Positions 41,668 to 63,087 of a stretch of 64,000 nt of DNA are shown piece by piece; positions within the stretch are counted from its first letter, which is position 1, and each line of letters opens with the position of its first letter. This stretch comes from Flavobacteriales bacterium (GTDB taxonomy: Bacteria > Bacteroidota > Bacteroidia > Flavobacteriales_D > JAUILH01). The translations under genes were made by a program, and so were the position numbers. The notes below the pieces were generated by a model that saw only the letters and a program-made list of their open reading frames with translations, did not search any database and was not told where the DNA came from. The stretch spans positions 475,652 to 539,651 of the forward strand of contig CAXRGQ010000006.1 in the NCBI GenBank assembly GCA_964230215.1. The letters are read 5' to 3'.

Positions 41668-42465
41668 ATGAATTATCGTCATTACATATTGTTCTTGCTG
41701 CTCATTCTAACTTTAGCTTATCCAGTTAGGGGGCAAGTAGAAGTGGCAGATACTATAAAACTAACCTCCACGCAAAGTTCGTCACGGATTATTACAGGAG
41801 TGGCAAAGCCTTCAAATGAGCTGAACGCTGCAAATGCTGATGGCATTATAAACAACCACCATAAATTTGCCTTAGCTTCAGGCACACCAGATTCGATAGA
41901 TTTGTCCTTGTCACCAAGTATCTCCACATATCTTCCAGGATCACAGGTTATGTTTTTCGCACCATCAAGCAATACAGATAGCGTATTAGTGAATGTTGAT
42001 GGGCTAGGTTTTGTGCCTCTTAACAAGGGATATGGCGTGAAATTAGACTCAGGAGACCTTAAAGCAGGTCTGGTTGTAAACGCCATTTATGATGGAACTC
42101 AATTTATCATATTGTCTGAGTTGAATAAGTCATGCCCATCAGGTTACACGAGCGTAAATGATTATTACTGCATCCATATAGATGAACAAGCAGATAGCGT
42201 TGATTATTGGCAGGCAATTGTGGCTTGCGCTGACGAAAACGCACGTTTGTGCACATGGAGTGAATGGTACAATGCATGCAGAAAATTAGGGACCTCATTG
42301 AATAACATGATAGATAATTGGGAATTTGTTGACGGTGCACAGAATTATCTTGCTGCATCCCCCACTAAAACTAGAGCAAAATTGGCCGGTGAATTTGCAT
42401 GCGAAGAGGGTTCTGGTGGAAATCCAACTGTTCCCAGAGCTTATAGGTGTTGTTATACAAAATGA
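41668..42465 (+). CDS. Secreted Cys-rich protein, paralog 1 (C-terminal C-type-lectin/FGE-like domain)
   Basis: 265 aa with a signal peptide (LTLAYPVRGQ). It shares the IYDGTQF motif and an 8-Cys C-terminal domain CPSGY..VN..YCI...W.A..C...LCTWSEWYNAC...RCCYTK with the next two genes. It begins 2 nt after the upstream stop codon. Confidence 0.85.
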   Translation: MNYRHYILFLLLILTLAYPVRGQVEVADTIKLTSTQSSSRIITGVAKPSNELNAANADGIINNHHKFALASGTPDSIDLSLSPSISTYLPGSQVMFFAPSSNTDSVLVNVDGLGFVPLNKGYGVKLDSGDLKAGLVVNAIYDGTQFIILSELNKSCPSGYTSVNDYYCIHIDEQADSVDYWQAIVACADENARLCTWSEWYNACRKLGTSLNNMIDNWEFVDGAQNYLAASPTKTRAKLAGEFACEEGSGGNPTVPRAYRCCYTK

Positions 42466-43241
42466 AAGCTTTATTAACCATATCTGTATTTTTAACTCTG
42501 TCGAATGTGTCCGGGCAGTTAACGGTGGATAAATCCATAAACTTTACCGCAACTGATTCTAGTAAAAATCAGGTTGTTGGGCACGATGAACCATTTCAAT
42601 TAGACCATGCTGTCAATGTCAACTCGGCGGTTAAAAGTGTGCTTAACTTTAGTAATTCAGTGAGCTATGCTAACAACATAATAAATGTAAACAGAAATAT
42701 TCCTGAACAAAACTATCAGACTGGTATGTCCATTGCTTTCATATCAAATTTTTCTTGTGATGATAGCGTCCAAATTACAATAGATGGAGGTGATACCGCC
42801 TTCATAACTAAAAGCATCACAGAATTATTGGACACAAACAATATAGCTGTCAATCAGTATGTAGAATTAATCTACGATGGAACTAATTTCCAATTATTAA
42901 ACAATACACAAGCTTGTCCATCTGGATTTGTTCAAGTAAATAATAACTATTGTATTCAAATGAACGAATACGGCCCCATGACCATTTATGACGCAATGGC
43001 ATTTTGTGATACGCTAGGAGGTCAATTATGCTCCCTATCCGATTGGTATTATGCATGCCAAAAAACCGATTTAAACCTCCAAGACATGACAAACAATTGG
43101 GAATGGATAAATCATGGAATGGACCATACTAGTGACGCCGCAACAGTTGGAAACGGCGTATGCGAGAGCATCCTTACACAGCAATCTGAGCTATGGCAAG
43201 GAGGAAATACTGCAATTTTTAGATGTTGTTATTACAGATGA
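42462..43241 (+). CDS. Secreted Cys-rich protein, paralog 2
   Basis: Signal peptide MKALLTISVFLTLSNVSGQ. The start ATG overlaps the upstream TGA (ATGA). The C-terminal domain has the same Cys pattern and ends in FRCCYYR. Confidence 0.85.
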   Translation: MKALLTISVFLTLSNVSGQLTVDKSINFTATDSSKNQVVGHDEPFQLDHAVNVNSAVKSVLNFSNSVSYANNIINVNRNIPEQNYQTGMSIAFISNFSCDDSVQITIDGGDTAFITKSITELLDTNNIAVNQYVELIYDGTNFQLLNNTQACPSGFVQVNNNYCIQMNEYGPMTIYDAMAFCDTLGGQLCSLSDWYYACQKTDLNLQDMTNNWEWINHGMDHTSDAATVGNGVCESILTQQSELWQGGNTAIFRCCYYR

Positions 43242-44002
43242 AACAATTGTCAACCATATTACTGATTTTATGCGCTCAATTTTCAATTGCCCAATTTGAG
43301 CTGAATAATGAAATCAATCTTACTGGTTCGACTGAATCGGATCGTCAAGTCTCTAATCTCGGACCTGCGTACGATACCACAAACATAGTTAGTGCGTTAG
43401 ACATTCAATCTAATAGATTGATATATTGTTCAGCAATTGGAAATGACTCGATTCTAGTTAATACTCAGGTGAGCTACAATGCATATCTCCCGGGGAGCGT
43501 ATTGTTAGTTAGAATTGACAGTAATAATGCCGCCTCTCCTGTTATTAATGTGAACGGACTAGGCTACAAAATAATTTTAAAGAACTATGCCGACAGCCTG
43601 CAATCCAATGACTTAATCAAGGGTCAGTTGGTATACCTAATTTATGACGGCGCTAATTTTCAACTGATAAATTGGTTAGAAAACTTTTGTCCTTCAGGAT
43701 TTACAAAGGTTAATAATTCTTATTGTATAGAAGCCGATGAGAATAATGCAAGTAATCTATGGGATGCCATTATTAACTGCAAAAGCAAAAACGCAAAAAT
43801 GTGTACTTGGGCAGAATGGTACTATGCCTGTCAAAAAACTGGACTAGGCCTTCTAAACATGACCAACAATTTTGAGTGGCTAAACTGCCCGATAAACAAT
43901 CCAAATCAAGCTCTAATAATTGGTAATGGTGACTGTTTAACAGGTACTGCTAGTCACGCAACTACCACATCCTACAATTTCCGCTGTTGCTATGCGAAAT
44001 AA
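43238..44002 (+). CDS. Secreted Cys-rich protein, paralog 3
   Basis: Signal peptide MKQLSTILLILCAQFSIAQ. It has an ATGA start/stop overlap with paralog 2. The C-terminal domain has the same Cys pattern and ends in FRCCYAK. Confidence 0.85.
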   Translation: MKQLSTILLILCAQFSIAQFELNNEINLTGSTESDRQVSNLGPAYDTTNIVSALDIQSNRLIYCSAIGNDSILVNTQVSYNAYLPGSVLLVRIDSNNAASPVINVNGLGYKIILKNYADSLQSNDLIKGQLVYLIYDGANFQLINWLENFCPSGFTKVNNSYCIEADENNASNLWDAIINCKSKNAKMCTWAEWYYACQKTGLGLLNMTNNFEWLNCPINNPNQALIIGNGDCLTGTASHATTTSYNFRCCYAK

Positions 44003-45284
44003 AATATTAGCAGCCCTCGTTATCATATGTTTTTCTGCTCCTCATATTAAGTCACAGAGCGACATTACCTGCTATTCTCCTAGCCAATCGCCAATTATCT
44101 TGCTTTCATACTACGGGTTGTCACATGACACAATAGCGTGTTACCAGCCTGATAAGGACGGAGTCGTCAACGTACCTCAAGAATTAGCTGAAGGGTTTTA
44201 TACAATTTCTCAAAACTCATTAAGTCGGGATTTTATTTTTACACCTAAAGAAAAACTCTCTATCTACTTTAATGATTCAACAATCGATTTGTCCTATTCT
44301 TTGGAAAATAATCTACTAGATACGGTTAGGCACAAATACCTCTCCTATAAGACAAGAAAAGATAACTTGTTGTTAATTAAACGCAATGCCCAGGATAATG
44401 AAATTCATGCGACAAGAATTGATAGCATTATTGGCAAATTGCAACACGACTTTAATCATGAACTTAATGAGCTTAAGTTAAAGTACCCTAGCTCATATGC
44501 AATTATTAGTACCTGCACATATATTGAGAAACTCACAAGTAATAGTAAATCATCTTATTTCTACAACTTAGTAATTGACAAAAAGTATTTGAATTCCACC
44601 CTGTACCCTAATATCTTTATGAACTACTTTAAGGAACATACAGCATATGATGAAAGTGGATTTAAATCAAGCATTGACACCATTCTGTACTATACCAGTT
44701 CTGATCAGTCCGTATATAATTATGCGTTAAAATTTATTCTTGAACTATTCGATAAGGTCGGACCTAAAATAATTTATGATTACATAATAGATAATTACTT
44801 ATTAAATGGTGGCTGCAACGAAGGAACAGAACTGGTAGATAAAGCTATATTAGAGGGTTACCTTAGCCTAAGAATCGGAAACAAACCGGATAATATAGAT
44901 ATTCTCGGCAAGGATCTATACTCTATTTGTAGCGCAAAAGACCATAACATTATTGTCTTTTGGTCATCTCATTGTTCATTTTGTAAGGAAGCTTTACCAG
45001 AACTATTAAGACTTCAATCAAAGACGGATAACATCAATATCATAGCGTTTTCATTAGATACAGATTTAAGTAACAATTACTATTTAAATGTACTTAACAA
45101 TTACCCGTGGACACATGTCTGTGATAAGAAATCATGGGATTCACCATATGTTAATCACTTCAAGATAAACAAAACGCCAAGCATCTTTTATTTGGATAGA
45201 TCGAGTACGATACTTGGTAAAAACTTAAGCACTATAGAACTAGAAAAACTTATAAAAGCTAGGCAAAATTCGACAGATCAATAA
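43992..45284 (+). CDS. TlpA/ResA-like thioredoxin-fold thiol-disulfide oxidoreductase with long N-terminal extension
   Basis: 430 aa with a signal peptide (FSAPHIKSQ). The C-terminal thioredoxin fold has a CxxC active site (IIVFWSSHCSFCKEALPEL) and a cis-Pro region (NKTPSIFYLD). It overlaps paralog 3 by 11 nt. Confidence 0.8.
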   Translation: MRNKILAALVIICFSAPHIKSQSDITCYSPSQSPIILLSYYGLSHDTIACYQPDKDGVVNVPQELAEGFYTISQNSLSRDFIFTPKEKLSIYFNDSTIDLSYSLENNLLDTVRHKYLSYKTRKDNLLLIKRNAQDNEIHATRIDSIIGKLQHDFNHELNELKLKYPSSYAIISTCTYIEKLTSNSKSSYFYNLVIDKKYLNSTLYPNIFMNYFKEHTAYDESGFKSSIDTILYYTSSDQSVYNYALKFILELFDKVGPKIIYDYIIDNYLLNGGCNEGTELVDKAILEGYLSLRIGNKPDNIDILGKDLYSICSAKDHNIIVFWSSHCSFCKEALPELLRLQSKTDNINIIAFSLDTDLSNNYYLNVLNNYPWTHVCDKKSWDSPYVNHFKINKTPSIFYLDRSSTILGKNLSTIELEKLIKARQNSTDQ

Positions 45285-48145: not shown

Positions 48146-48756
48146 TGTATGATTTTCTTTACCTCTTTTGCAGGATTACCAGCATAGACACTATCAGCAG
48201 GAACATCCGTAACCACAACACTTCCGGCCGCGATTACCGCTCTTTCTCCAATAACTACCCCTTTCATTATAACAACGTCAAATCCTATCCAAGCCTTATC
48301 ACCTATAATTATCGGTTTAGACTCAACTTTATCCCAATTCTTATACTTGCCAATGGCACCCTCAACTATACCCTTCTTCCAATCCTTTACATCATTCTTC
48401 CGTTCTTCCCAATAAATTGAATGTGCGTTATTATCCATAAACGTGCATCCCCAGGATATTAAAACATCATCACCGACTGTAATACTGTTAATACATATAA
48501 ATTTACATCCCCCACCAACGAATGTCCTACTTCCAATCTTAACTACGCCTTCGTCATTTTCAAATATATAGCTACCAGAAACTACACTATCATCACCAAT
48601 TACAAGTCTTATGGCTTCATTTTTACTTCTATTCGACAGTTTAATTGAATCAGTTAATGAGCTATCGCCTGATTGTATGTATAATTGCTTTGAAACAGTG
48701 TTATCTGGCTTACCACTGCCTAATAGTTTTCTATATACCTTTTTTAATAACCCCAT
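48142..48756 (-). CDS. Hexapeptide-repeat (LbH) acetyltransferase
   Basis: 204 aa. Hexapeptide repeats and the C-terminal motif VPADSVYAGNPAKEVKK, typical of WbbJ/maltose-O-acetyltransferase-like enzymes. Confidence 0.85.
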   Translation of the reverse strand: MGLLKKVYRKLLGSGKPDNTVSKQLYIQSGDSSLTDSIKLSNRSKNEAIRLVIGDDSVVSGSYIFENDEGVVKIGSRTFVGGGCKFICINSITVGDDVLISWGCTFMDNNAHSIYWEERKNDVKDWKKGIVEGAIGKYKNWDKVESKPIIIGDKAWIGFDVVIMKGVVIGERAVIAAGSVVVTDVPADSVYAGNPAKEVKKIIQ

Positions 48757-49685
48757 TTAACATTCAAATCAATCTTAATAATCTCAGACAATCTATTGAT
48801 ATCGCTTTTATATTTAATCATCAAGGTATCATACGTCTCTTTGTTGATTTTGAGTTTTCCATCATCAACAATATTGTTTTCAAGAATTTTATTGGCATAA
48901 GCTCTGCCAATCGCGTTCGACATTAGACGATTAAATCCTCTTTTAATTCCATACGCATAATATTGTTTTCGAGCACTCTTGATACTGACAGATTTATTGA
49001 CCTCCTCAAGCTTAAACTCTCGTTCATCAACTCCTATAAAACTACAAATAGAATTCAATACTTCATTCTGGTTTTGTTTAAAATCTTCATAAAGGTAAAC
49101 TTTCACATTTTCTGCTCCCATGGCCTTATAAAAACGCTCAACTTGATCTGCGTACAGACCAGAATTAAAATACAGGTAGTTATTCTTAAAACTGTGGTCC
49201 TGCTTGGATAGTGAAATTTTTCCAGATATTCTATCATCCTCGACCTGTAACGCTTCTTCAAACGTCTCTGCTTTTTCATAACCACTCATTACCATCCAAT
49301 TATATAATGAAAATGCCCTTTTAGCAGGATTTCTTAACATAATAATTATCTTGGCAGCCGGTGCCTCTCTTTTTATAATTTGAGCACTATTTGGGCTAGA
49401 TAAGTAGGCATGACACACCTCTCCTATCATTTGATTCTCTGTTGCCTCTAGAAAATGTTCTAAATATTTGTCTTTATCATTAATACCGTAGATATCCGAA
49501 TAATAGCCTAATTCTTTAAAGCGAATATCACTTGTTACAAAGATCTGTGGGTGATTCTGAAAGTACTTCCATAATGCTGTAGTCCCACTTTTTGCAGCTC
49601 CAACAACCAGAAAATCAGGATTTCTCATAGACGACATTATAATTAAATAATTCAAGTTGCGCTTTTGAAACGGCATTGAATTCAT
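48744..49685 (-). CDS. Sulfotransferase (heparan-sulfate-sulfotransferase-like, Sulfotransfer_1 type)
   Basis: PSB loop FLVVGAAKSGTTALWKYF and 3'-PB IIIMLRNPAKRAFSLY. The real start is probably an internal Met at 49637 or 49628, which would reduce the 71-nt overlap with the upstream gene. Confidence 0.82.
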   Translation of the reverse strand: MNSMPFQKRNLNYLIIMSSMRNPDFLVVGAAKSGTTALWKYFQNHPQIFVTSDIRFKELGYYSDIYGINDKDKYLEHFLEATENQMIGEVCHAYLSSPNSAQIIKREAPAAKIIIMLRNPAKRAFSLYNWMVMSGYEKAETFEEALQVEDDRISGKISLSKQDHSFKNNYLYFNSGLYADQVERFYKAMGAENVKVYLYEDFKQNQNEVLNSICSFIGVDEREFKLEEVNKSVSIKSARKQYYAYGIKRGFNRLMSNAIGRAYANKILENNIVDDGKLKINKETYDTLMIKYKSDINRLSEIIKIDLNVKWGY

Positions 49686-50460
49686 CTATGTATTCCTTAT
49701 TTGGAAACAACTTTTGGCTTCCTGATACGCCCTTATCAATAAATCCCTTACCCTTGGCAAAACCATTTTCAGATCTCATTTTCATCCAATCTGTTCTACT
49801 TTCCAGCGATTTCATATGCTCAATTGAGGTCAAGTCAGCAACTTTTTTCATTTCTTCATCTGATCTTTTAATTTCTAAGAAATCACAAATCCTTTTAATA
49901 ACTTCAATCTTCTTGTCAATTATGTCTTCAAATTTCAGGACCATAAATTTATCCAGATTTGTTCTTTGAACCATCCATTCATTTACATGGTTATGCCAAT
50001 ATGTACCCATTATCTGGGTCTTACACGCTAACGCTCCATTTAAATCAAACTTATGTCCCATTTTCTCCATCATCACAGAATACGAAATTAGAGCATCCCG
50101 ACCATCTCTCACTAAATATATAACCTTTCTGTGATGATGTTTTGGTAATTCATGTGACTTAAAAAAACAAGTGTCATTTACTCTAAAATAGTACTTGTTA
50201 GCATATACATCTGGACATATTAGATTGACTAACGATCGACCAGCCTGCTCATTTATGCCATAATATAAGTGCGCTATAATATGCTGCATTAATGTGTTCC
50301 CGGACTTAGGAAACCCCACAATAAAGACATCCTTTTCTGAGAACTTCCCCATCTTTTCAACACCACCAGGAAATGAAGCATTAATCTTTATCGATAGCTT
50401 CTCTTGCTCAACAGATTGACCGCTGTCTCCAGATAAAGATCGTATTATCCGTTTAATCAT
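49615..50460 (-). CDS. Sulfotransferase (aryl/cytosolic-type Sulfotransfer_1)
   Basis: 281 aa. PSB loop FIVGFPKSGNTLMQH and 3'-PB VIYLVRDGRDALISY. Confidence 0.82.
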   Translation of the reverse strand: MIKRIIRSLSGDSGQSVEQEKLSIKINASFPGGVEKMGKFSEKDVFIVGFPKSGNTLMQHIIAHLYYGINEQAGRSLVNLICPDVYANKYYFRVNDTCFFKSHELPKHHHRKVIYLVRDGRDALISYSVMMEKMGHKFDLNGALACKTQIMGTYWHNHVNEWMVQRTNLDKFMVLKFEDIIDKKIEVIKRICDFLEIKRSDEEMKKVADLTSIEHMKSLESRTDWMKMRSENGFAKGKGFIDKGVSGSQKLFPNKEYIDEFNAVSKAQLELFNYNVVYEKS

Positions 50461-51739
50461 ACTTATTAATTTCCCACCTAACTTCAGGTGCTGTTATTCC
50501 GGCTAACAAAACATTCTGTCTGGTGCCAGAGCTAGTCATTTTTTCAAGATTAATCTCCAATACATTGCTAATTTTAAACAGTTGTTTAACATTCGGAACA
50601 CCGGCCTGCAATTGAACTATATAAGATCCTTGATTGAAGAAGTTTTTAGGCAAGATTGCACTAATTGAATACTCTCCGATTGGCTTAACAATATCATCAA
50701 CATCATGACTACTAGTGACAAATAACACCACTTGATTTCTATCCATCACAGTAATGTTAAACCTCATATCTCTTATTTCAGAGAGTATTTTATAGTCTAC
50801 CCTAATTTCAATTTCATGATGTGTTGAAAATGTTTCATTAATCTTACCCTCATGATTACGCGCACTAACTTGAACAATTTGCAATTCATTGGTTGTAGCT
50901 TCCTTAGGAATAAAAATTCCTTCTCTACCTGTGTTAGTGTTTTCTTGGTTCAAATAATAATCAATTGCCTTATCTGTATCTCCAGTAAAAACCAATCTTC
51001 CATTATTAAGCACACAGCAGCGTGTACAAAGATTTCTAATACTGGACATATTGTGGCTAACAAAAAGCACTGTTCTGCCCTCTGAAGAGCTCACGTCCTT
51101 CATTTTACCGATGGCCTTTTTCTGAAATTCAGCATCTCCAACTGCCAAAACCTCATCTACAATTAAAATTTCAGGTTCTAAAAATGCAGCCACGGCAAAC
51201 CCCAAGCGCACTCGCATTCCTGAAGAAAATCTTTTCACAGGTGTATCGACATATTTCAAACAGCCCGCAAAATCAACAATTTCGTCAAATTTACTCGCAA
51301 TCTCTTGCTTATTCATTCCCATTATTGCACCGTTCAAATAAATATTTTCCCGTGCGGTCATATCGGGATGCATCCCCGTTCCAACTTCTAATAATGATGC
51401 AATTCTTCCATTTGCCTTGATAGCCCCTTTTGTTGGAGATGTAATTTGCGAAATCAATTTTAACAAAGTGGATTTACCGGCACCATTTCTACCAATAATT
51501 CCTACAACTTCTCCTTGCTTAACCTCCAAGTTTATATCGTTTAAAACCAGAGCATAACCGCTATCTGACTTTTTCGTTCTATCATTCTCTTCACCTACCA
51601 GACTAAACGGGTCCTCTTTGCCTCTAATTCTAGCCCACCATCGGTTGAGATCACTTGATATTGTCCCCGTTCCAATTTCTCCTAGTTTATACTGTTTGTA
51701 TAAATGCTCTATTTTCAATGCAACTTTAGTCATAGACAA
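50453..51739 (-). CDS. wzt: O-polysaccharide/teichoic-type ABC exporter ATP-binding protein with C-terminal extension (Wzt)
   Basis: 428 aa. Walker A GRNGAGKST, signature FSSGMRVRL and Walker B ILIVDEV. About 170 extra C-terminal residues resemble the beta-sandwich Wzt_C glycan-cap-binding domain. Confidence 0.88.
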   Translation of the reverse strand: MSMTKVALKIEHLYKQYKLGEIGTGTISSDLNRWWARIRGKEDPFSLVGEENDRTKKSDSGYALVLNDINLEVKQGEVVGIIGRNGAGKSTLLKLISQITSPTKGAIKANGRIASLLEVGTGMHPDMTARENIYLNGAIMGMNKQEIASKFDEIVDFAGCLKYVDTPVKRFSSGMRVRLGFAVAAFLEPEILIVDEVLAVGDAEFQKKAIGKMKDVSSSEGRTVLFVSHNMSSIRNLCTRCCVLNNGRLVFTGDTDKAIDYYLNQENTNTGREGIFIPKEATTNELQIVQVSARNHEGKINETFSTHHEIEIRVDYKILSEIRDMRFNITVMDRNQVVLFVTSSHDVDDIVKPIGEYSISAILPKNFFNQGSYIVQLQAGVPNVKQLFKISNVLEINLEKMTSSGTRQNVLLAGITAPEVRWEINKYD

Positions 51740-51746
51740 ATCATGA

Positions 51747-52592
51747 TTATACAGTATCTACAAAGTTTTTCTCGGTTCTACTGAAAACAATGACACCCAA
51801 AAGTAAAATAACGAATGCACATATAGAGGCATAAGCAATTCCTTGAAAAGAGAACTCTCCTTTTGCAAGAAACGCGTATTTAAAGGTCTCAACGATATGT
51901 GCCATTGGATTCAAGCTAATAATCGTTTTTAATTTCCCCTCTACCATGCTCATCGGATAAATAATTGGTGTTGCATACATAAGAAGTTGCACACCAAACT
52001 GCAATAAGAACTTTAAATCCCTGTACTTTGTAGTTAGAGATGTAAATATCAATCCAAAGCCAAGGCCCAGCGCAGCCATAAGAACCACCAAATAAGGAAC
52101 AACTATAACCGATTCATTTAAATACACCTCACCACCATTAATCGCATAATACGCATACACTGCCGCGAAGAGTAAAAATTGTATCCCAAACTTTATAAGC
52201 CCTGACATTACCACAGACAAGGGCACAATTAGTCTTGGAAAATATACCTTACCAAACATATCCTGATTTTTACCAAAGGTATCTGAGGTCTGGATGAAAC
52301 ATTCTGAAAAATAATTCCAGATAATAATACCACACAAATAAAACAATGGTTTTGGAATGCCATCAGATGGTAATCCTGCAATATTCCCAAATATGACTAT
52401 ATACACCGCCATGGTCATTATTGGCTGTACCACATACCAAATGGGGCCCAGAATCGTTTGTTTATAAACGGTGATTATGTCTCGTTTAACAAATAAAAAA
52501 AGTAAATCCTTGTACCTGTATACTTCTTTGAAATTAACATCAAAGACTTTCTTTTTAGGCTCTATGATTATATCCCACTTATTTTTCTCCAT
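51747..52592 (-). CDS. wzm: ABC-2 type polysaccharide export permease (Wzm)
   Basis: 281 aa with 6 TM segments. The N-terminal motif RDIITVYKQTILGPIWYVVQP is typical of the ABC-2/Wzm family, and the gene lies directly upstream of wzt. Confidence 0.88.
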   Translation of the reverse strand: MEKNKWDIIIEPKKKVFDVNFKEVYRYKDLLFLFVKRDIITVYKQTILGPIWYVVQPIMTMAVYIVIFGNIAGLPSDGIPKPLFYLCGIIIWNYFSECFIQTSDTFGKNQDMFGKVYFPRLIVPLSVVMSGLIKFGIQFLLFAAVYAYYAINGGEVYLNESVIVVPYLVVLMAALGLGFGLIFTSLTTKYRDLKFLLQFGVQLLMYATPIIYPMSMVEGKLKTIISLNPMAHIVETFKYAFLAKGEFSFQGIAYASICAFVILLLGVIVFSRTEKNFVDTV

Positions 52593-52860: not shown

Positions 52861-55581
52861 ATGAAAAATTCTACTTACTCAATTCATTTTTTCTCAACCA
52901 TCGCACTACTGTGTGTTTCGCTGTTTGCAAATGCAGGTACGTTTACCAGTCATACATCAGGTAACTGGAATGCAGGTGCTGCCGTTTGGACAATTGTTGG
53001 TGATGCTGATGGAATTCCTGATGCAGATGATGATATAATTATTACATCCGGCACAACCGTTATATGGGGCCAGACCACAACGCAATTTTGCAGAGACTTG
53101 ACTGTGAATGCAGGTGGAGTACTTCAGGGAAAAAACAACTTTAGTAGAACCTTAAGAATTCATGGGAATCATGTGAACAATGGAACTGAAACCTTGGCAG
53201 GGACAATATTTTACATGGGGAGTGGAACTACCATTTCTGGTTCAGGAACATTTTCAACATTATATAATTGGGCTTTCTTAACAGATAGAACTTTGTTAGC
53301 TGGAGCAACCGTATCCAAAGGAAGATGGATTAGACTGTATAACGGTGCTGACTTCACAAACCGCGGCACACTTACTTGTCAAAGTTCAGTTATTGCTTAC
53401 AACGCAGCCAGTGTCTTTACGAATGAAAACAACTTAACTATAAGAGCGTCTAATTTTATGACAACAGGTACGTTTAATTCTCACTTTGTTGGAAATACGG
53501 TTACGCTGCACTGGAATCCAGCAATCACAGGAAATGAAAACATTCCCAATCCATCTGCAGGATACTATAATGTAATAGTCAATGCTTCTTCATCACACTA
53601 CAAGTTTACTGCAGATATGATTATTGCCAATGATCTTACTATAAACAACACATCTCCTGTTTTAAATTTTGATGTATTCGATTTGAATATTGGTGGAGAT
53701 TGGACGAACAACGGTGGGTCATTGACAAGTGCAGGAAGTAGCACTATCACCTTTGATGGGAGTGGAACACAAGTTATATCACATGGTACAAATCCACAGC
53801 AAGGATTGTTTACCACCATAATTGATATCAACTCGACTTTGCAATTAAATACAGATTTAAATATAAATGGAGATTTCACAGTGCTTGGAGCTATGGATGC
53901 TACTGCAGCTAACCACAACGTAACAGTAAATGGTGATGTAAATATCACTGGTACCTTGGACATGCAAAATGGAGAGTTCACTTTCAATGGGTCGTCAGCT
54001 CAAACAATGGATGCTAGTGGAACGATTAACTTTTATGATTTAACAATTCAGAACTCAAGTACTGGTGTAACCCTAAATACTGGAACTTATACTATCGATA
54101 ATAATGTTGTAGTAAATGATGGAGGATTAAACACGAATGGTAATGGATTTACATTATTAGCGAATGGCACACAATCTGCTCGAATTAGATTCATCAACGC
54201 TGGTACATCTATTACTGGAAATGTTACGCTGCAAAGAAACCTTCCAGCAGGAAGCGCAGATTACAGAGACTTATCTAATCCATTTACTGGTGGCATTGAT
54301 TTCAGTCAATGGGATGATGACTTAATTATTAGTGGAACTGGATTCCCTGATGGATGCGCATACGGCGGTGGATGTTTTGCCTCTATTAAGACTTTTGATG
54401 CTTTTTCGCAAACGTATAGTGACGTAACTAACGTAACCGATCCTATGGAGAACTCTATTGGGTATGAAGCTTTCCTTGGTGATGATTTGAACACTTTTAG
54501 CGGTGTACAACTTGATGTAACTGGGACAGTAAATGGTGCTGCTGGTTTCTTACAAAATGTGAGAGCCGGTTGGAATTTGGTAGGAAACCCTTACGCATGT
54601 GAAATTGATTGGCACAGTATGTCATTAGGTGCTGGTGTGGGTGATTTCTTTTACATCTATGATAGCGGAACAGGGAATTTTGAATATTATGAGGTAACTG
54701 GTCCTGGCACAGGAACAGCGTCTGGTAACATTAACACTAATGGTATTATCGCATCAATGCAAGGATTTTGGGTTAATACTAACTCTAATACCAATTTAGT
54801 ATTCGGTCAATCATCAAAAACTGAAGCCAGTGTAGATTTTGTAAGAAGTACTGGTACAATTGATAGAGACCAATTGGCTATCACAATCAAAAATAATGAC
54901 AACGATTATAGCTGTAAGTCTACTGTTAGATTTGATGCGTTAGCAATTGATAACACAGATGATTATGATGTTCCAATGTTTAGAGGACCTGAGCGACCAA
55001 CGGTTCGCAAAAGCCCGTTGCTTTTCTTCAGAAATAGTGATGGTACTGACGTAAGACTCAATGCGCTTAATTACGATTATGCTATCAGCAAAACTATTGA
55101 TGTATGGATGAATACTGAAATAGATGGAAGGTTTACAATTTCAGCTAATGACGTTGATGTATTTGGGACTTATAAGTGTGTGTTCCTAAATGACAAGTTT
55201 ACTGGAGAATCGGTGAACCTAAGAAAATCTGATTATACTTTTACACAACTTGCAAGCACTGAAGATTTGGATCGTTTTGAAATACTATTGTCAAATGAAT
55301 CCAATTGTGATATTGAAGAAATTGCTTCTTTAGATGATAATTCACTTGATTATGTAATTGGTTATTCCGAAGAATTCGTTAGAGTTACATTGTTTGAAGA
55401 TCAATCTTCAATTACCACTACGAGTATTAAAGTATTCAATATGCTTGGCGAACTTGTTGAAGTTGCTACATTCTCAGGAAATACATTCGATATTAATAAA
55501 TCTAACTTGAGTCCTGGTATGTATATTGTTCAAATGAATAATGGCTTAGCTGAATCTTCTGCCAAGTTTGTAATTAAGTAG
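52861..55581 (+). CDS. Large secreted protein with T9SS C-terminal sorting domain (adhesin-like, probable beta-helix repeats)
   Basis: 906 aa with a signal peptide (LLCVSLFANAG). The body is Thr/Asn/Gly-rich and repetitive. The C-terminal CTD reads IKVFNMLGELVEV...LSPGMYIVQMNNGLAESSAKFVIK. Confidence 0.82.
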   Translation: MKNSTYSIHFFSTIALLCVSLFANAGTFTSHTSGNWNAGAAVWTIVGDADGIPDADDDIIITSGTTVIWGQTTTQFCRDLTVNAGGVLQGKNNFSRTLRIHGNHVNNGTETLAGTIFYMGSGTTISGSGTFSTLYNWAFLTDRTLLAGATVSKGRWIRLYNGADFTNRGTLTCQSSVIAYNAASVFTNENNLTIRASNFMTTGTFNSHFVGNTVTLHWNPAITGNENIPNPSAGYYNVIVNASSSHYKFTADMIIANDLTINNTSPVLNFDVFDLNIGGDWTNNGGSLTSAGSSTITFDGSGTQVISHGTNPQQGLFTTIIDINSTLQLNTDLNINGDFTVLGAMDATAANHNVTVNGDVNITGTLDMQNGEFTFNGSSAQTMDASGTINFYDLTIQNSSTGVTLNTGTYTIDNNVVVNDGGLNTNGNGFTLLANGTQSARIRFINAGTSITGNVTLQRNLPAGSADYRDLSNPFTGGIDFSQWDDDLIISGTGFPDGCAYGGGCFASIKTFDAFSQTYSDVTNVTDPMENSIGYEAFLGDDLNTFSGVQLDVTGTVNGAAGFLQNVRAGWNLVGNPYACEIDWHSMSLGAGVGDFFYIYDSGTGNFEYYEVTGPGTGTASGNINTNGIIASMQGFWVNTNSNTNLVFGQSSKTEASVDFVRSTGTIDRDQLAITIKNNDNDYSCKSTVRFDALAIDNTDDYDVPMFRGPERPTVRKSPLLFFRNSDGTDVRLNALNYDYAISKTIDVWMNTEIDGRFTISANDVDVFGTYKCVFLNDKFTGESVNLRKSDYTFTQLASTEDLDRFEILLSNESNCDIEEIASLDDNSLDYVIGYSEEFVRVTLFEDQSSITTTSIKVFNMLGELVEVATFSGNTFDINKSNLSPGMYIVQMNNGLAESSAKFVIK

Positions 55582-55881: not shown

Positions 55882-58266
55882 TTAATCATCACTGTAATCG
55901 CCGTAGCCATAACCATAGCCATAACCATAGCCATAACCATATCCGTAGCCATACTTACCATAGTATTTTTGCCACCTTGAGACCTTTACCCCATTTAGGA
56001 CAATTCCACAATTCTTGAGTTTGTTTTTGCTTACCAAAGTTTCAACAAAAGCAATTTCTTTTTTTCTCGTGTTATTGGTATTAAAAACAAAAATATTTGC
56101 ATCAACTTTGTTCATTAAAGATATTGCATCTGATATTAGACCGACGGGAGGCGTGTCAACAATAACATAGTCATAATTGTCGCTACCATAAGCAATCAAT
56201 TCATCTATTTTATCATTCATGATTAATTCAGATGGATTAGGAGGCACAGGACCACAAAAAACAACATCTAAATTAGGTTCATCTGAACTTATTATAATTT
56301 CATCTAAACTACTTTTCCCGATAATAAACGTGCTGATTCCAATATCAACTTTTTCTTTGAAAGCTCTGTAAATTCTAGGCTTATGCATGTCCAGCTCAAT
56401 AAGCAACACCTTCTTATTAGCCCTTGCAATGATTGTAGCCAAATTAAGTGCACAAAACGTTTTTCCTTCCCCTGGAGCAACAGAAGTAATTAATATCGTC
56501 TTCTTGTTAGATTTATCGCTTCTGGATGCTCCAAAATATTGCAGATTTGTTCGAATAGACCGGAATGACTCTGATAATTGAGACTTAGAGTCAGAAGACA
56601 TTAACTGATAATCTAATGCTGATTTATCAGTATTTTTAAATACCTGACCTATTACAGGTAAGCTGGTCACATCTGATAACTCTCCGAGATTTGATATTTT
56701 TCTGTAAAATGTTTCCCTCACAAAAGCGATTACTGCAGCAATAATAAATCCAGCACCTATGAAAATCATCAAAAATTTATTTCTATTTGGTGCCATTTGT
56801 CCTGCTGAACGCGCTCGCTCAATCACTTTAGTTTCAGGAATAATACCTGCCTTTGCTATTACCGTACTTGCCCTTTTTTCCAACAAATACATGTAAAGCT
56901 TATGATTGACATCCAGCTTTCGCGTAATATTTAACAAGCCTCTCTGCTTTAGGGGCATCCTAGAAAGGTTAGCTTCTATTTTTCCAATTTCCTGTGAAAC
57001 AGTATTCAATCTTGACTCAAGTGCTTTTTTGGTATTTATTATGTATTCAAGTACGTTGTCCTTTAAATCAGATATTTGAACATTAATCTGTAAGATTTTG
57101 GTAGATGAGTCTGTAAACGACCTTTTTGCTTCAATTCTTTTATTTTGCAAATCATAGAACTCCGATATCCGAGTAGACAAAAACTCATCATCAGAATTGA
57201 TATAAACGGAGCTAGGTAGAAGTATGTCAGAGGTTGGGACTATGTTCAATATGTAGCTTTCTAACGTCCGTAAATCATTAATTTTAAGTCTAACCAATCG
57301 CGACTCATCTTGATACTTTATTAGATTATCGAAATGAATAGCTTCTTCACGATCTAAATCAAGGATTGACTTGTTTTCTTTATAAATATCCAGAGTATCC
57401 TCAATCTCATTTAGTACACCTATCACCTCATTTAGCTGTTTATCGATATAATGTAAAGTACTATCGTTCCTCTCAATTTTGGACTCCAATGTATAATCAA
57501 TGTATACTTTAGATAACTCATCTAGAAACTGCACCCCTCTTTGTGGAATTTCATCCAAAACAAGCAACTCTAGTATATTGGTGTACTCAACGTTGGTTAC
57601 CGTTAGGTTGGACAAATACTTTCCAACAAGATCTGCCTTTGATCTTATCTGTATGTAATAATCAACTTTTTTATGTGTTTCAAGACGGTCACTTGTAAAG
57701 TCATTAGTTTTCTTTGGAATTACCTCAAAATATTTAAGATTGTTCACCGTCTCGAACAATGCATATTCCTCAATTTTATTACCACCTATTTCATAGCTGA
57801 GTTTTATTTTGTCCTCATCTATTATTTTAACGTCTATCTTTTTTCCATATATCGCCTTGTTGACGACATTTACGTCTAATTTATATGGCAAGCCTACCCA
57901 TACCTCCTGACTTTTAACTCTACCTTCAATGTAATATGCTACCTCAAAATCAAGACGATCTAATGCCCTCTCTATTAAATCCCGTGATTTTATTACACGG
58001 CTTTGATTTTGCATATCCGAATAAATGTCGCCATATCCAATTGACCGATAAATGTTGTTTTGATAATCGTAGACATCCGATGACTTTACCAATATCTGAG
58101 TCTTTGCACCATAAATATCCACCATTTGATATGTGTAGAGATATCCTAGCAGACCGGCAAACAAGGGAATTGTACAAAGTAGCCATAAATTCCTGATTAA
58201 AGTCCTAAAAAGAACAGCCAAATCCTTGGCCGACAATATATTGTTATCCTGCTTATCCTTCATCAC
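55882..58266 (-). CDS. wzc: Polysaccharide co-polymerase / tyrosine autokinase (Wzc-type, PCP2a)
   Basis: 794 aa. It has an N-terminal TM, a periplasmic coiled-coil Wzz/GNVR-like region and a second TM (FLMIFIGAGFIIAAVIAFV). The BY-kinase domain carries Walker A SVAPGEGKT, Walker A' LLIELDMHKP and Walker B YVIVDTPP. The tail is Tyr-rich: YYGKYGYGYGYGYGYGYGYGYGDYSDD. Confidence 0.9.
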   Translation of the reverse strand: MMKDKQDNNILSAKDLAVLFRTLIRNLWLLCTIPLFAGLLGYLYTYQMVDIYGAKTQILVKSSDVYDYQNNIYRSIGYGDIYSDMQNQSRVIKSRDLIERALDRLDFEVAYYIEGRVKSQEVWVGLPYKLDVNVVNKAIYGKKIDVKIIDEDKIKLSYEIGGNKIEEYALFETVNNLKYFEVIPKKTNDFTSDRLETHKKVDYYIQIRSKADLVGKYLSNLTVTNVEYTNILELLVLDEIPQRGVQFLDELSKVYIDYTLESKIERNDSTLHYIDKQLNEVIGVLNEIEDTLDIYKENKSILDLDREEAIHFDNLIKYQDESRLVRLKINDLRTLESYILNIVPTSDILLPSSVYINSDDEFLSTRISEFYDLQNKRIEAKRSFTDSSTKILQINVQISDLKDNVLEYIINTKKALESRLNTVSQEIGKIEANLSRMPLKQRGLLNITRKLDVNHKLYMYLLEKRASTVIAKAGIIPETKVIERARSAGQMAPNRNKFLMIFIGAGFIIAAVIAFVRETFYRKISNLGELSDVTSLPVIGQVFKNTDKSALDYQLMSSDSKSQLSESFRSIRTNLQYFGASRSDKSNKKTILITSVAPGEGKTFCALNLATIIARANKKVLLIELDMHKPRIYRAFKEKVDIGISTFIIGKSSLDEIIISSDEPNLDVVFCGPVPPNPSELIMNDKIDELIAYGSDNYDYVIVDTPPVGLISDAISLMNKVDANIFVFNTNNTRKKEIAFVETLVSKNKLKNCGIVLNGVKVSRWQKYYGKYGYGYGYGYGYGYGYGYGDYSDD
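55900..55953 (-). repeat. In-frame tandem repeat encoding (YG)9 in the wzc 3' end
   Basis: The 54-nt tract contains three perfect consecutive copies of GCCATAACCATA (plus strand), flanked by degenerate copies (GCCGTAGCCATA upstream as part of the tract, TCCGTAGCCATA downstream). Confidence 0.9.
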
Positions 58267-58397
58267 GCGGGTTGCAAACCTACAAAAATAAGTCGTTTAC
58301 TAGGTTTGTCCTATTTTTGTTGCACTTTATGATGAAAATATTACTTCTGATGGATAAAATGAGGTGGTGATATGATATATTTATATATTTGTACTCA

Positions 58398-58640
58398 ATG
58401 AAGTGGATTAAATTAATCGGAATTGTAGTTGTACTTGTTGTAAGTACACAATTACTTCAGGCTCAGCCAGCCGGAGGAGGACCAGGTGGACCACCCGCTG
58501 GAGGACCGCCACCTTGTTGGCCACCACCCTGCGTTCCAGTAGACGGTGGACTAGGCTTCTTAATAGCTGCAGGTGTGGCTTTAGGAGGAAAAAAACTTTA
58601 CGACCTTAGAAAAAATAACAATAACGAAAAGTTGAGCTAG
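58398..58640 (+). CDS. Small secreted Pro/Gly-rich protein with C-terminal exosortase-type sorting signal (candidate XrtF substrate)
   Basis: 80 aa from the ATG at 58398 (the track starts at the TTG at 58389). The parts are signal peptide MKWIKLIGIVVVLVVSTQLLQA, QPAGGGPGGPPAGGPPPCWPPPC, motif VPVDGG, hydrophobic LGFLIAAGVALGG and basic tail KKLYDLRK. A terminator hairpin follows. Confidence 0.75.
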   Translation: MKWIKLIGIVVVLVVSTQLLQAQPAGGGPGGPPAGGPPPCWPPPCVPVDGGLGFLIAAGVALGGKKLYDLRKNNNNEKLS

Positions 58641-58655
58641 TCTCAACTTTTTTTT
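58629..58655 (+). terminator. Rho-independent terminator/attenuator between the small gene and xrtF
   Basis: AAGTTGAG-CTAGT-CTCAACTT followed by TTTTTT. The stop codon TAG lies in the loop, and the xrtF ATG is 3 nt after the T-tract. Confidence 0.7.
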
Positions 58656-58658
58656 CGC

Positions 58659-59222
58659 ATGAAAGATTTTTTGAAGAATAATCCCCTTGCTAAGTTTTTA
58701 CTTATAGCCTTAGGTGCTTATATCGCATGGATTATTCTTTATGAAGGCGTATTTGAATCATTAGGCTGGAAAATTAAACTGGACTTTTGGGTGTCTCAAG
58801 TTCTATCTGACACCAGCGCTGTGCTTCTTGATATATTCGGTTTTGATCCAACCCAACGCACTGAAGGTGATTTTGTGGTAATAGGACTGCCAGATCCTTC
58901 TGGGTTTGGTGTGCATATAGGTCCCGATTGTAACGGGGTGAGCTTATTTGCTTTATTCCTTGTATATGTGCTCGCGTTCCCTGGCCCAAGCAAAAAGAAA
59001 CTTTGGTTTATCCCTCTCGGAATTCTTAGCATACATTTATTAAATACAATACGTATTGCTTCATTGGCATATATTGCACGTTATTACCCTGCATACCTAG
59101 ATTTAAACCACACCTACACCTTTCAGATACTGGTGTATGGGTATGTATTTTTCCTATGGTATGTGTGGACCAACAAATTGAGCGGATTAACCCATGACAA
59201 AAACACCTCTGAGGAAATATAG
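58659..59222 (+). CDS. xrtF: Exosortase family protein XrtF
   Basis: 187-aa polytopic membrane protein. The exosortase catalytic-triad context is present: Cys in GPDCNGVS, Arg in LLNTIRIASL and His in DLNHTYTF. Size and lineage fit the Bacteroidota XrtF subfamily. Confidence 0.85.
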   Translation: MKDFLKNNPLAKFLLIALGAYIAWIILYEGVFESLGWKIKLDFWVSQVLSDTSAVLLDIFGFDPTQRTEGDFVVIGLPDPSGFGVHIGPDCNGVSLFALFLVYVLAFPGPSKKKLWFIPLGILSIHLLNTIRIASLAYIARYYPAYLDLNHTYTFQILVYGYVFFLWYVWTNKLSGLTHDKNTSEEI

Positions 59223-59694
59223 ATGGGTTAGTGTCATCCTATTGGCCGCCCTTATACTGATGTCTGGTTATAAACGGGATCGTGTGTTCTATTATCTAGA
59301 TGCTCGTATTCAATATGAAGAGGGAAATTATCACAGAGATTTAGCTAAAGAGTATCTACCAGATTCTGAATTTAAAACCATTTATAATCAAGATTTGGAT
59401 GGACTTTATAAAGAGAAGTGGATACAAACAGGGAAATTCACGGTTATCTATTTTTTGATTGCTTTTTTAGGCTTAATATTATTTGAAACCGATAAGTCTT
59501 TCTTTAAATACCTACTATATCTGTATCTAGCACTCACTTTAATAGGTTTTCTCGCATATGGTCTCGATTATGTCATCTCAATGAATAATCTAGGCTATAC
59601 TATTGCCATGTTCCTTATGCACATTCTACAATCTCCTCTGCCTCTTTTTATTTTCCTTCCTGCCCAAGTTCTTCTCACTTATAAAAAGAAATAA
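59194..59694 (+). CDS. Exosortase F system-associated membrane protein
   Basis: 166 aa with 4 TM segments. It overlaps xrtF by 29 nt. This is the position and architecture of the conserved XrtF-partner family in Flavobacteriia. Confidence 0.75.
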   Translation: MTKTPLRKYRWVSVILLAALILMSGYKRDRVFYYLDARIQYEEGNYHRDLAKEYLPDSEFKTIYNQDLDGLYKEKWIQTGKFTVIYFLIAFLGLILFETDKSFFKYLLYLYLALTLIGFLAYGLDYVISMNNLGYTIAMFLMHILQSPLPLFIFLPAQVLLTYKKK

Positions 59695-61025: not shown

Positions 61026-62048
61026 TTAGCTTTGCATCCATTTGTAAACATCTACTTTATTTTCTTTACCCTTTAGCTCAAGAGCGCCCACATGCTCAAA
61101 TTGTGACTTTGTAGATGTAATGTTATTATATACATCTTCGCTAACTAGCAGATTTGCATTGTGTTGATTGCACATACCCTGAATACGTGCACTTGTGTTG
61201 AGGGTATCACCACTAAAGTCAACGTTCTTTTTTAAATAACCAATAACAGCCCCTATACATTCTCCAGTGTGAATTCCTGATTTAAACAGAGGCTCAAACC
61301 CATACTTTTTCATGAAGTAATCCTTCTTCTTGGCTAAAATTTGATTTATGGCAATGTGCAAATTTGTGCAGTTATCATCTTTAAATCCATCCTCAAAGCG
61401 CCACGTAAAAATTACTTCATCGCCAATATATTTTAGAATGCTTGCCTTGTGTTTTAGAGCTGGTCCAGTCATATAATAGAGAGATTCATTTACAAATTCA
61501 TAAAACATTTTATCGTCCATCTTCTCTGCAATCGCCGTACTATCCTTCATATCAATAAACATAAATACTCTATTCTCTTTTCTCGGCTTACTATACCTTC
61601 CACTAATAAAACTGGCGAATGTCCCCTGCCCCATTATTATCTCGGTGGTGTAGATAAAAAGAACAAAGAATGATAGAACCGCATATCGATATATTTGTAG
61701 GACGTATCCTTTATCCATCATCATATCAGTAAAATAGGAGAATCTAAAACTCTGCATCAGGTTTTTTCCGTCAACAAAATAGGCCTCAATCGAAACGCCC
61801 ATAATTATGAGCAGGTTAATTCCCAAGAGAATAATAAAGTACTCAATATAAATTGGTAATGATTTTAACCTCTGTGTCACCACAAACTCTTTCACAAAGA
61901 TGCTCCCAGCGCCCACCACAAAAGCCGATAATGCCTCCCACCACAAGAATGATCTGCCTTCATAAATAAGAAGCATCAGATACAATACGGCTCCTATCAA
62001 ACCATATCGTAAAATGCCTTTTAACTTGTATAATGTATATCTAAACAT
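61026..62048 (-). CDS. Membrane-anchored class III adenylate/guanylate cyclase
   Basis: 340 aa with about 5 N-terminal TM segments. The cyclase domain shows VFMFIDMKDSTAI (metal Asp), KYIGDEVIF, GIHTGECIGAVIG and FSGDTLNTSARIQG. Confidence 0.85.
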   Translation of the reverse strand: MFRYTLYKLKGILRYGLIGAVLYLMLLIYEGRSFLWWEALSAFVVGAGSIFVKEFVVTQRLKSLPIYIEYFIILLGINLLIIMGVSIEAYFVDGKNLMQSFRFSYFTDMMMDKGYVLQIYRYAVLSFFVLFIYTTEIIMGQGTFASFISGRYSKPRKENRVFMFIDMKDSTAIAEKMDDKMFYEFVNESLYYMTGPALKHKASILKYIGDEVIFTWRFEDGFKDDNCTNLHIAINQILAKKKDYFMKKYGFEPLFKSGIHTGECIGAVIGYLKKNVDFSGDTLNTSARIQGMCNQHNANLLVSEDVYNNITSTKSQFEHVGALELKGKENKVDVYKWMQS

Positions 62049-62100
62049 ATTGACTTAGCGACTGTAATATTACTTAGATTTGCAAGACTATCGGAAGGAA

Positions 62101-63087
62101 ATGCCTGCTTTTTTAAGACTATACGTATTAGATATGATCCTTGTTTGGGGAGCTTACGGCGTATACTATCTCTACCCATTTGCGCATCTTGGATCACTTC
62201 AACAAAAAGAATTTGGCATAGAGATATTGCTTTACCTAACCATCGCTTATAGCATAATCGCTCTTTATACTTTGTACCATAAGGCAGCTCAAGATGAGTC
62301 AACAAAAGCTTATCGGATTCTGGAAGCATTGCTCTCAAAAAAGTCCGTTAAAGGTGTAAAAAACGATCTTCTTTTTATGGGAGTTAAGTTCTTTTTTATT
62401 CCTCTTATGGTGCCATCAACTATTGCTTACGGCGAATCAGTTTGGACGATGATGCAGAACTTTAATGCGGCTAAGTTGAGTTTTATTCAGCTTTTTAATT
62501 CACAGATTTTCCCCATAATCGTTCAGCTAGTCATGGTTATTTCATTGGCCTACTATAGCTTTGGCTACCTCATTGAGTCGAAGAAATTAGGTAGTACGGT
62601 GCGCTCTGTAGAACCTAGTCTTTTTGGCTGGCTTGTTTGCATAGTATGTTATGTCCCATTTTATACCTTCTTGGCAAAATACGTTCCTATGTACACCCAT
62701 GATTTAGCCTATTTCTATAATGATACCGTCACTTTTATAGTTAGACTCGTTCTTATTGTCGCTATGTCATATAAAATTTGGGCAATATCTGTTTTGGGTG
62801 CTAAATGCTCTAACCTTACCAATAGAGGTATCGTAACTGCGGGTCCCTACAAACATGTTCGACATCCACATTATGTCGCTAAGCTGAGTGTATGGTGGAT
62901 TACACTTATACCGGCAATAAACAATGAATCCATTGGCACTAGCTGGGAGCCACTATTGTATATGTTATTATGGACACTGATTTACGGCTTAAGAGCGTAT
63001 ACTGAAGAACAGCACTTATTGAGTGATAAAGATTACCAGTCGTACTACAATAAGGTAAAATATCGTTTTATCCCTGGGCTCTATTAA
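62101..63087 (+). CDS. Isoprenylcysteine carboxyl methyltransferase (ICMT)/phospholipid methyltransferase-family membrane protein
   Basis: Polytopic membrane protein. The C-terminal motif is LVTAGPYKHVRHPHYVAKL...EEQHLL. The track starts at the TTG at 62080, but the ATG at 62101, preceded by GGAAGGAA, is preferred. Confidence 0.75.
   Translation: MPAFLRLYVLDMILVWGAYGVYYLYPFAHLGSLQQKEFGIEILLYLTIAYSIIALYTLYHKAAQDESTKAYRILEALLSKKSVKGVKNDLLFMGVKFFFIPLMVPSTIAYGESVWTMMQNFNAAKLSFIQLFNSQIFPIIVQLVMVISLAYYSFGYLIESKKLGSTVRSVEPSLFGWLVCIVCYVPFYTFLAKYVPMYTHDLAYFYNDTVTFIVRLVLIVAMSYKIWAISVLGAKCSNLTNRGIVTAGPYKHVRHPHYVAKLSVWWITLIPAINNESIGTSWEPLLYMLLWTLIYGLRAYTEEQHLLSDKDYQSYYNKVKYRFIPGLY

Follow-up and report, generated by a model that had tools for sequence, protein, structure and literature searches.

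A probable exosortase X cassette with a miniature candidate substrate at the edge of a Flavobacteriales glycan locus

A cassette of three genes, encoding a miniature exported protein, a minimal exosortase and a small multi-span membrane protein, was analyzed in a 64,000-nucleotide stretch of a Flavobacteriales bacterium genome (GenBank assembly GCA_964230215.1, contig CAXRGQ010000006.1, positions 475,652 to 539,651 of the forward strand). This whole stretch is referred to as the window, and all coordinates are given within it. With a probability of about 0.8, the cassette is a member of the PID-CTERM/exosortase X (XrtX) sorting system of Bacteroidota, made up of a dedicated mini-substrate, a minimal exosortase and an accessory membrane protein. 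The genes were confirmed on the plus strand at 58398..58640 (mini-gene), 58659..59222 (exosortase) and 59194..59694 (partner), the first two being separated by 18 nucleotides (nt) and the last two overlapping by 29 nt. An initial annotation, made from the letters alone, had described these three open reading frames (ORFs) and their positions, a divergent wzc gene and the edge of a glycan locus of about 38 kb, all of which were borne out by the sequence and by Pfam.

The 187-residue exosortase was compared with 14 exosortase/archaeosortase models. Its best match was NF046081 (exosortase X), which covered the full length at 165.5 bits (E = 9.7e-49; cut-off 170) and led the other models by 73 bits. 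TIGR04128, the XrtF model, gave 92.6 bits (cut-off 90, a margin of 2.6), and the XrtF label of the initial annotation was abandoned on these two scores and on the partner matches described below. Its recognition of an exosortase with a Cys/Arg/His context held: the superfamily signature TIGR04178 was matched at 58.9 bits (cut-off 23) and PF09721 at 31.8 bits (cut-off 25.7), with a weak match to ArtA as well. The catalytic candidates C91, R132 and H151 (58929-58931, 59052-59054 and 59109-59111), found in the motifs GPDCNG, LLNTIRI and LNHTYTF, are invariant in an alignment of 32 sequences. A confident AlphaFold2 (AF2) model built from this alignment (pLDDT 89.4, pTM 0.81) has a helical membrane core and a small beta-hairpin. 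The closest relatives, at 59-61% identity, come from a Parvicellaceae (Flavobacteriales) metagenome-assembled genome (MAG) and a Bacteroidia MAG, and the two nearest reached 172.6 and 165.5 bits on the XrtX model, compared with 170-208 for other homologues. Clear XrtX members gave 85-102 bits on the XrtF model, on a par with the window enzyme. Fourteen homologues, some of them named XrtF in their source, scored 165-208 bits on the XrtX model versus 78-102 on the XrtF model, and TIGR04128 is therefore simply a broad model. One homologue carries the NCBI label 'exosortase X'.

The 166-residue partner matched NF046082 (XrtX-associated) over nearly its full length (39.3 bits, E = 4.9e-10), this being its only meaningful match. 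No match to TIGR04127 (XrtF-associated; cut-off 35) was obtained at E ≤ 1. Eight partners from clear XrtX loci gave 37-73 bits on NF046082, all under its cut-off of 75, so that this model is narrow; a few partners from XrtX loci had faint similarity to TIGR04127 (15-20 bits). The overlap with the exosortase gene had been noted in the initial annotation, and its count of four transmembrane (TM) segments was roughly right, as a hydropathy scan picked out three strongly hydrophobic stretches and a further, weaker one near the N-terminus could be seen by eye. For comparison across genomes, the best 80 of 410 exosortase relatives from a genome scan were taken as genome loci. In most of these a partner-sized ORF (about 150-200 residues) lies 3′ of the exosortase gene, and homology to the window partner was detected by tblastn in 30 of the 80.

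Read from the ATG at 58398, the mini-gene encodes 80 residues and a stop codon, with the layout MKWIKLIGIVVVLVVSTQLLQA / QPAGGGPGGPPAGGPPPCWPPPCV - PVDGG - LGFLIAAGVALGG - KKLYDLRK - NNNNEKLS. Residues 1-22 (58398..58463; MKWIK / LIGIVVVLVV / STQLLQA) form a signal peptide, as judged by inspection and by a hydrophobic segment at residues 4-16. It contains no lipobox Cys, and a signal peptidase I cut is predicted after LQA22. The exported Pro/Gly-rich segment that follows (residues 23-46, 58464..58535) has 24 residues and ends in the CWPPPCV region; its Cys pair, CWPPPC (residues 40-45, 58515..58532), is conserved in the family and probably forms a disulfide-bonded loop in the periplasm. Next come the sorting motif P-V-D-G-G (residues 47-51, 58536..58550), the presumed site of exosortase recognition or cleavage, a Gly/Ala-rich TM helix (residues 52-64, 58551..58589; hydropathy peak at residues 50-62) and a cytoplasmic basic cluster, KKLYDLRK (residues 65-72, 58590..58613). 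Every element of this architecture had been given in the initial annotation exactly as found here. The protein fits the general plan of an exosortase substrate, with a signal peptide at the N-terminus (judged by eye) and, at the extreme C-terminus, a motif followed by a TM helix and a basic cluster; the motif is P-V-D-G-G, and no Pro-Glu-Pro motif is present.

Residues 46-69 of the mini-protein matched NF046080, the PID-CTERM protein-sorting domain, at 37.4 bits (cut-off 26), and the hedged guess of a 'PID-CTERM'-type signal in the initial annotation was thereby confirmed. When all six frames of the window were searched for a tail pattern (P-x-D/E, a hydrophobic stretch and basic residues within the last 50 residues), a single stop-to-stop frame matched, and this frame abuts the exosortase gene. 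Over residues 24-69, comparison with the nearest homologue (locus L001) gave 23 synonymous codon changes and one amino-acid change (V46I), which argues that the mini-gene is translated and under purifying selection.

The synteny of a small Pro/Gly-rich tail gene with the exosortase, which the initial annotation had put forward for comparison, was found from both directions. Among the genome loci, 79 could be assessed, the remaining one being cut by a contig end. The mini-gene lies immediately upstream of the exosortase gene on the same strand in 74 of these and elsewhere in the cassette in 2 more (76/79). Conversely, at least 120 metagenome loci were collected by matching DNA to a degenerate pattern that encodes CWPPPC[IV]P[IV]DGG, 93 of them with enough downstream sequence, and the exosortase follows directly downstream of the mini-gene in 83 of the 93. 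The loci examined belong to Flavobacteriales and other Bacteroidota. The idea of a co-located miniature substrate thus rests on curated hidden Markov models (HMMs) and on two-way synteny, and its processing would follow by analogy.

Departures from this arrangement were of several kinds. The 10 metagenome loci without an adjacent exosortase sit in ordinary chromosomal contexts. A phage origin of exosortase-less mini-genes was considered and rejected: the DNA pattern had no matches in viral contigs, and the surroundings of L109 (a class I Glu/Gln tRNA synthetase, a cytochrome c and Fpg) are ordinary chromosome. At the metagenome loci L087, L117 and L167 the order is a protein with a type IX secretion system (T9SS) domain, the mini-gene and glyA, the exosortase and partner genes being gone from their usual place. 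L084, L109 and L169 encode a divergent mini-protein (PPCWPPPC[VI]PVDGGIFTFTLIAMLFGAKKIKDN) in a different, ordinary chromosomal neighborhood, with a small signal-peptide protein, a Cys-rich 178-residue protein and a cytochrome c nearby; no exosortase was found in the available sequence of these three loci.

A profile search recovered more than 2,500 relatives of the mini-protein. The best 120 all have 71-96 residues and all carry Pfam domain PF28310, which is newer than the Pfam copy used for the domain scans; one relative is named 'PID-CTERM protein-sorting domain-containing protein' at NCBI. Family statistics were calculated from 181 unique sequences with lengths of 67-97 residues (median 75). 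Pro makes up 37% of the exported segment and Gly 21%, and the stretch between the mature start and the PID-motif Asp has a median length of 27 residues. A Cys pair stands just ahead of the motif in all 181, as CWPPPC in 157, as CIPPPC in 8 and, in a subgroup with PCDGPFGPVC, as C-x7-C. PIDGG accounts for 162/181 motifs and PVDGG for 15/181, with P47, D49 and G51 invariant in the alignment. In 176 of the 181, the same number of residues separates P-x-D-G-G from the KK/RK pair (13 in the window protein), and the basic cluster most often reads KK-x-[YFL]-[DN]. The tail Tyr (KK-x-Y-D) was considered as an obligatory phosphorylation site for Wzc; this was not supported, as Phe, Leu, Val and Met are also found at this position.

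The reach of the tail was examined with a phmmer search using 35 residues without the Cys loop against 1.84 billion representatives (E ≤ 0.001). Of its 55 matches, 53 were proteins of 36-117 residues and were judged genuine. Two long matches (381 and 220 residues) were rejected as substrates, since no P-x-D motif was present and only Gly/Ala-KK repeats were aligned. P0244 and P0279, from the same search, are long Lys-rich proteins in which repeated AGLAYGGKKLYDKYKK segments imitate the helix and basic part, without P-x-D. Larger tail-bearing variants do exist, namely two 117-residue proteins and a 128-residue Cys-rich protein (L077:3590-3973) with a VPIDGG tail and RRRK, which occupies the position of the mini-gene upstream of an XrtX-type enzyme and scores 20.9 bits on the PID-CTERM model, under the cut-off. 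The mini-proteins of L057, L073 and L074 have P-[VI]-N-G-G for P-I-D-G-G and no KK pair (CIPVNGGMLYAVGAAILFGAYALIKSLRTR). That of L057 gave no match to the PID-CTERM model, and annotation would therefore miss variants of this kind. As far as the searches reach, the PID tail appears confined to mini-proteins, usually encoded by one gene beside the enzyme.

Several observations weigh against the assignment to the XrtX system. The exosortase falls 4.5 bits short of the NF046081 cut-off, so that cut-offs alone would name it XrtF (92.6 vs 90), and the partner, at 39.3 bits, is below the NF046082 cut-off of 75. Comparison with the family models, proposed in the initial annotation as a check, accordingly gave a mixed outcome, the mini-protein lying above the PID-CTERM cut-off, the exosortase just above that of XrtF and just under that of XrtX, and the partner under that of the XrtX-associated family. 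An adjacent mini-gene is missing in 3 of the 79 assessable genome loci, about 11% of mini-genes (10/93 loci) have no exosortase next in line, and a few relatives that bear the tail have no Cys pair. The genomes may also encode larger PID-CTERM proteins whose tails have diverged further. Neither a search of PDB sequences using the exosortase profile nor Foldseek of its AF2 model against the PDB gave a match (at E ≤ 1 and below E = 1, respectively). In the paper library searched, nothing on PID-CTERM or CWPPPC was found, and nothing on XrtX or exosortase X as this system. By its profile scores, the window cassette is placed at the edge of the XrtX family, where the Parvicellaceae and Bacteroidia MAGs also belong; the homology of the enzyme to XrtX is clear even though its score is under the trusted cut-off.

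For the XrtX cassette the following course of events is proposed. The mini-gene would be transcribed from its own Bacteroidota-type promoter, and a hairpin at its stop codon, followed by a U-run, would pass only part of the transcripts into xrtX and the partner gene, resulting in an excess of substrate over enzyme. Sec would export the 80-residue precursor, and signal peptidase I would cleave it after LQA22. Its C-terminal Gly/Ala helix would then hold it in the inner membrane, with KKLYDLRK on the cytoplasmic side and the 24-residue Pro/Gly segment on the periplasmic side, where the Cys pair is possibly disulfide-bonded. C91, R132 and H151 of XrtX are predicted at periplasmic helix ends by the positive-inside rule, which would place the KKK loop (residues 112-114) in the cytoplasm. 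XrtX would recognize P-V-D-G-G at the periplasmic face and remove the helix and basic tail via a Cys thioacyl (acyl-enzyme) intermediate, after which the peptide of about 25 residues would be transferred to an envelope acceptor (lipid or glycan) or released. Recognition, tail removal and transfer or release are inferred from archaeosortase A and the sortases, on which these steps are modeled.

The product may act in surface polysaccharide or matrix biology, as suggested by the conserved neighborhood of Wzc and a T9SS protein and by the biofilm and colonization phenotype of the XrtF pair. In Flavobacterium johnsoniae, deletion of either XrtF or its partner Fjoh_1449 impairs colonization and biofilm formation (PMC10936215); a need for the partner and a role at the surface matrix would apply to the window cassette by analogy with this pair. 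A more specific version, in which XrtX joins the disulfide-looped Pro/Gly peptide of about 25 residues to a lipid or to a polysaccharide handled by Wzc, as a cap or anchor on the surface glycan, is considered rather unlikely. If true, it would make the cassette the simplest natural system for bacterial exosortase chemistry and, by homology, a guide to XrtF substrates.

Alternatively, the mini-protein might remain uncleaved, its tail docking into the enzyme, and serve as a permanent single-pass subunit or as a pseudo-substrate regulator of XrtX and its partner or of Wzc. Its exported part is indeed tiny and without a recognizable functional domain, and is less well conserved than the tail, the helix length and the juxtamembrane KK-x-Y-D; the mini-gene is also kept at some loci without an adjacent exosortase. 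We nevertheless hold this to be improbable, given that exosortase and archaeosortase substrates carry a tripartite tail of this kind as their standard signal (PMC12188702), that the catalytic triad of the enzyme is invariant, that the separate promoter and the terminator-like hairpin of the window agree with production of the substrate in excess, and that the same tail is found on larger cargo, such as the 128-residue protein of L077 and the 117-residue proteins.

Assignment to a classic XrtF system of the Fjoh_1448/Fjoh_1449 type, which would make the mini-gene the first recognized XrtF substrate, has in its favor the TIGR04128 score above cut-off and the fact that the Joint Genome Institute (JGI) and older NCBI annotations call many homologues 'XrtF'. 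XrtF is likewise a minimal Bacteroidota exosortase of about 175-190 residues followed by a small multi-TM partner, and its targets are still unreported (PMC12188702). The assignment is very improbable in view of the 73-bit lead of the XrtX model, with which all homologues tested, including those named XrtF in their source, are likewise set apart from XrtF by family-model scores; in view of the window partner, which has no TIGR04127 match at E ≤ 1; and in view of the PID-CTERM domain, which has its own curated model in the XrtX number series (NF046080, NF046081, NF046082). The statement of the initial annotation that XrtF lacks an obvious sorting signal holds for true XrtF (PMC12188702), whereas the enzyme of this cassette has an adjacent candidate substrate. 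A chance frame in the wzc-xrt intergenic region, as the shortness, low complexity and lack of a match in the Pfam copy used might suggest for the 80-residue ORF, is ruled out for practical purposes by the conservation pattern, with 23 synonymous changes to one amino-acid change, more than 2,500 homologues, the NF046080 match above cut-off and a position conserved in 76 of 79 loci.

Among known systems, the closest is the NCBIfam trio of PID-CTERM, XrtX and XrtX-associated models, which is the best or only family match of all three window proteins. Gene order, sizes, motifs and taxonomic range agree with those of the 80 genome loci and the 120 metagenome loci examined. That NF046080, NF046081 and NF046082 form one system is inferred from their names and consecutive accessions. 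The window differs from the trio in its PVD rather than PID motif, in the enzyme score 4.5 bits under cut-off and in the partner score far under cut-off. The pairing is not new: NCBIfam already models all three proteins and PF28310 covers the mini-proteins, so the system is known to database curators and the window holds an ordinary copy of it. Proper annotation should read PID-CTERM protein, exosortase X-like protein and XrtX-associated protein, not XrtF.

Two further systems were used for comparison. With PEP-CTERM/exosortase A (EpsH, XrtA), the cassette shares a substrate plan in which a signal peptide stands at the N-terminus and a motif, TM helix and basic cluster close the C-terminus. 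It differs in the motif, P-E-P in PEP-CTERM versus P-[IV]-D-G-G in the window family, and in the single substrate of about 75 residues beside the enzyme in the loci examined here. XrtA is also much larger than the 187-residue minimal core, and PEP-CTERM proteins are often numerous per genome. The latter are highly divergent among themselves, and the system is linked to exopolysaccharide (EPS) loci including a tyrosine autokinase or chain-length determinant (PMC12188702). An echo of this PEP-CTERM/EpsH-EPS association had been seen in the initial annotation, and a wzc homologue was indeed found near the cassette. It lies upstream in 48 of the 80 genome loci, about 28 of which have the directly divergent arrangement of the window, and among the metagenome matches listed it is present in 81 of 120 loci. 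These counts argue for wzc linkage as a conserved trait of the cassette. Archaeosortase A of Haloferax volcanii (ArtA, with PGF-CTERM substrates) belongs to the same superfamily (TIGR04178) and has the Cys/Arg/His triad; it differs in being archaeal, in its motif and in its large S-layer glycoprotein substrate. For ArtA there is biochemical evidence of C-terminal cleavage coupled to lipid attachment, and to our knowledge it is the sole member of the superfamily with biochemical evidence. We know of no bacterial exosortase for which lipid transfer has been shown, nor of one with a chemically defined product.

The value of the cassette lies in the system rather than in the window copy. A pair of one enzyme and one substrate of 25 residues beside wzc offers a handle on exosortase chemistry. 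The processed product and its attachments should be unusually easy to find by mass spectrometry because of the single adjacent substrate, the exported part of about 25 residues and the invariant Cys pair near the presumed cut site. Placement beside wzc and a T9SS protein gives a concrete hypothesis of a surface polysaccharide or matrix function, and the kinship with XrtF provides a lead toward XrtF targets.

Putative expression signals flank the mini-gene. A perfect match to the Bacteroidota-type -7 promoter box TAnnTTTG (TATATTTG; 58384..58391, plus strand) ends 6 nt 5′ of the ATG. Within 150 nt upstream of the mini-gene, TAnnTTTG was present in 38 of 61 loci, compared with 2 of 61 control windows, mostly at 4-25 nt from the start codon. 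The box is a putative dedicated promoter of the mini-gene; because of its distance to the start, the 5′ leader would be very short or absent, and the position of the box favors the start ATG at 58398 over a TTG at 58389. At the other end of the gene, the stop codon is contained in the loop, CUAGU, of an 11-bp hairpin, after which a U-run (hairpin and run at 58626..58655, plus strand) ends 3 nt 5′ of the exosortase ATG. Upon folding, a free energy of -10.7 kcal/mol was obtained (z-score -2.9 relative to shuffled sequences). A comparable hairpin and T-run occurs in L001, L002, L043, L052, L064 and others, together a minority of loci; in the two nearest relatives, L001 and L002, the hairpin is retained but altered in its loop and at one stem position. 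A T-run of at least 5 between mini-gene and exosortase gene was found in 19 of 63 genome loci scanned; elsewhere the two genes are 0-16 nt apart or overlap by ATGA. The hairpin may act as a partial terminator that sets the ratio of substrate to enzyme. In the window lineage, the arrangement fits high expression of the substrate with attenuated read-through into the enzyme genes.

Divergent from the cassette, the minus strand encodes a Wzc-type chain-length regulator/tyrosine autokinase (55882..58266) with Wzz, GNVR and AAA_31 (P-loop) domains. It matched TIGR01007 at 168.7 bits (cut-off 108) and had partial similarity to XrtA-associated kinase models. Its C-terminus (55882-55970) is a long Gly-Tyr repeat, YGYGYGYGYGYGYGYGYGDYSDD, and repeat tails of a comparable kind are found on the wzc homologues of L042, L059 and L062.

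Beyond wzc, a 906-residue protein with a T9SS C-terminal sorting domain (Por_Secre_tail) is encoded at 52861..55581 on the plus strand. It is a recurrent neighbor: homologues occur in 27 of the 80 genome loci, mostly upstream on the same strand and ending just 5′ of the mini-gene. Such a neighbor was seen, for example, at L025, L027, L029, L039, L043, L063 and L067. The T9SS protein may possibly belong to the XrtX system. On the 3′ side of the cassette, glyA is present in 38 of the 80 genome loci. Past glyA in the window, 61026-63087 encodes a membrane-anchored class III nucleotide cyclase (minus strand) and a membrane protein of the isoprenylcysteine carboxyl methyltransferase-like (ICMT) family, neither of which was found near the cassette in the other loci (0/80).

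The glycan locus extends from about 19.6 to 58.3 kb (about 38.7 kb), with the cassette at its end. According to Pfam, it encodes glycosyltransferases, acyltransferases, a DegT-family aminotransferase, two sulfotransferases, a methyltransferase, an epimerase and a Wzm/Wzt-type ATP-binding cassette (ABC) exporter. A 502-residue ORF (21673-23181) and three successive ORFs of about 260 residues (41668-44002) within the locus are without Pfam match, the latter being followed by a gene for a thioredoxin-like protein (43992-45284). The two sulfotransferase genes are neighbors and adjoin the exporter genes (48744-52592), with wzc in the same locus, a hint that the surface polysaccharide is sulfated and that the locus encodes two export routes.

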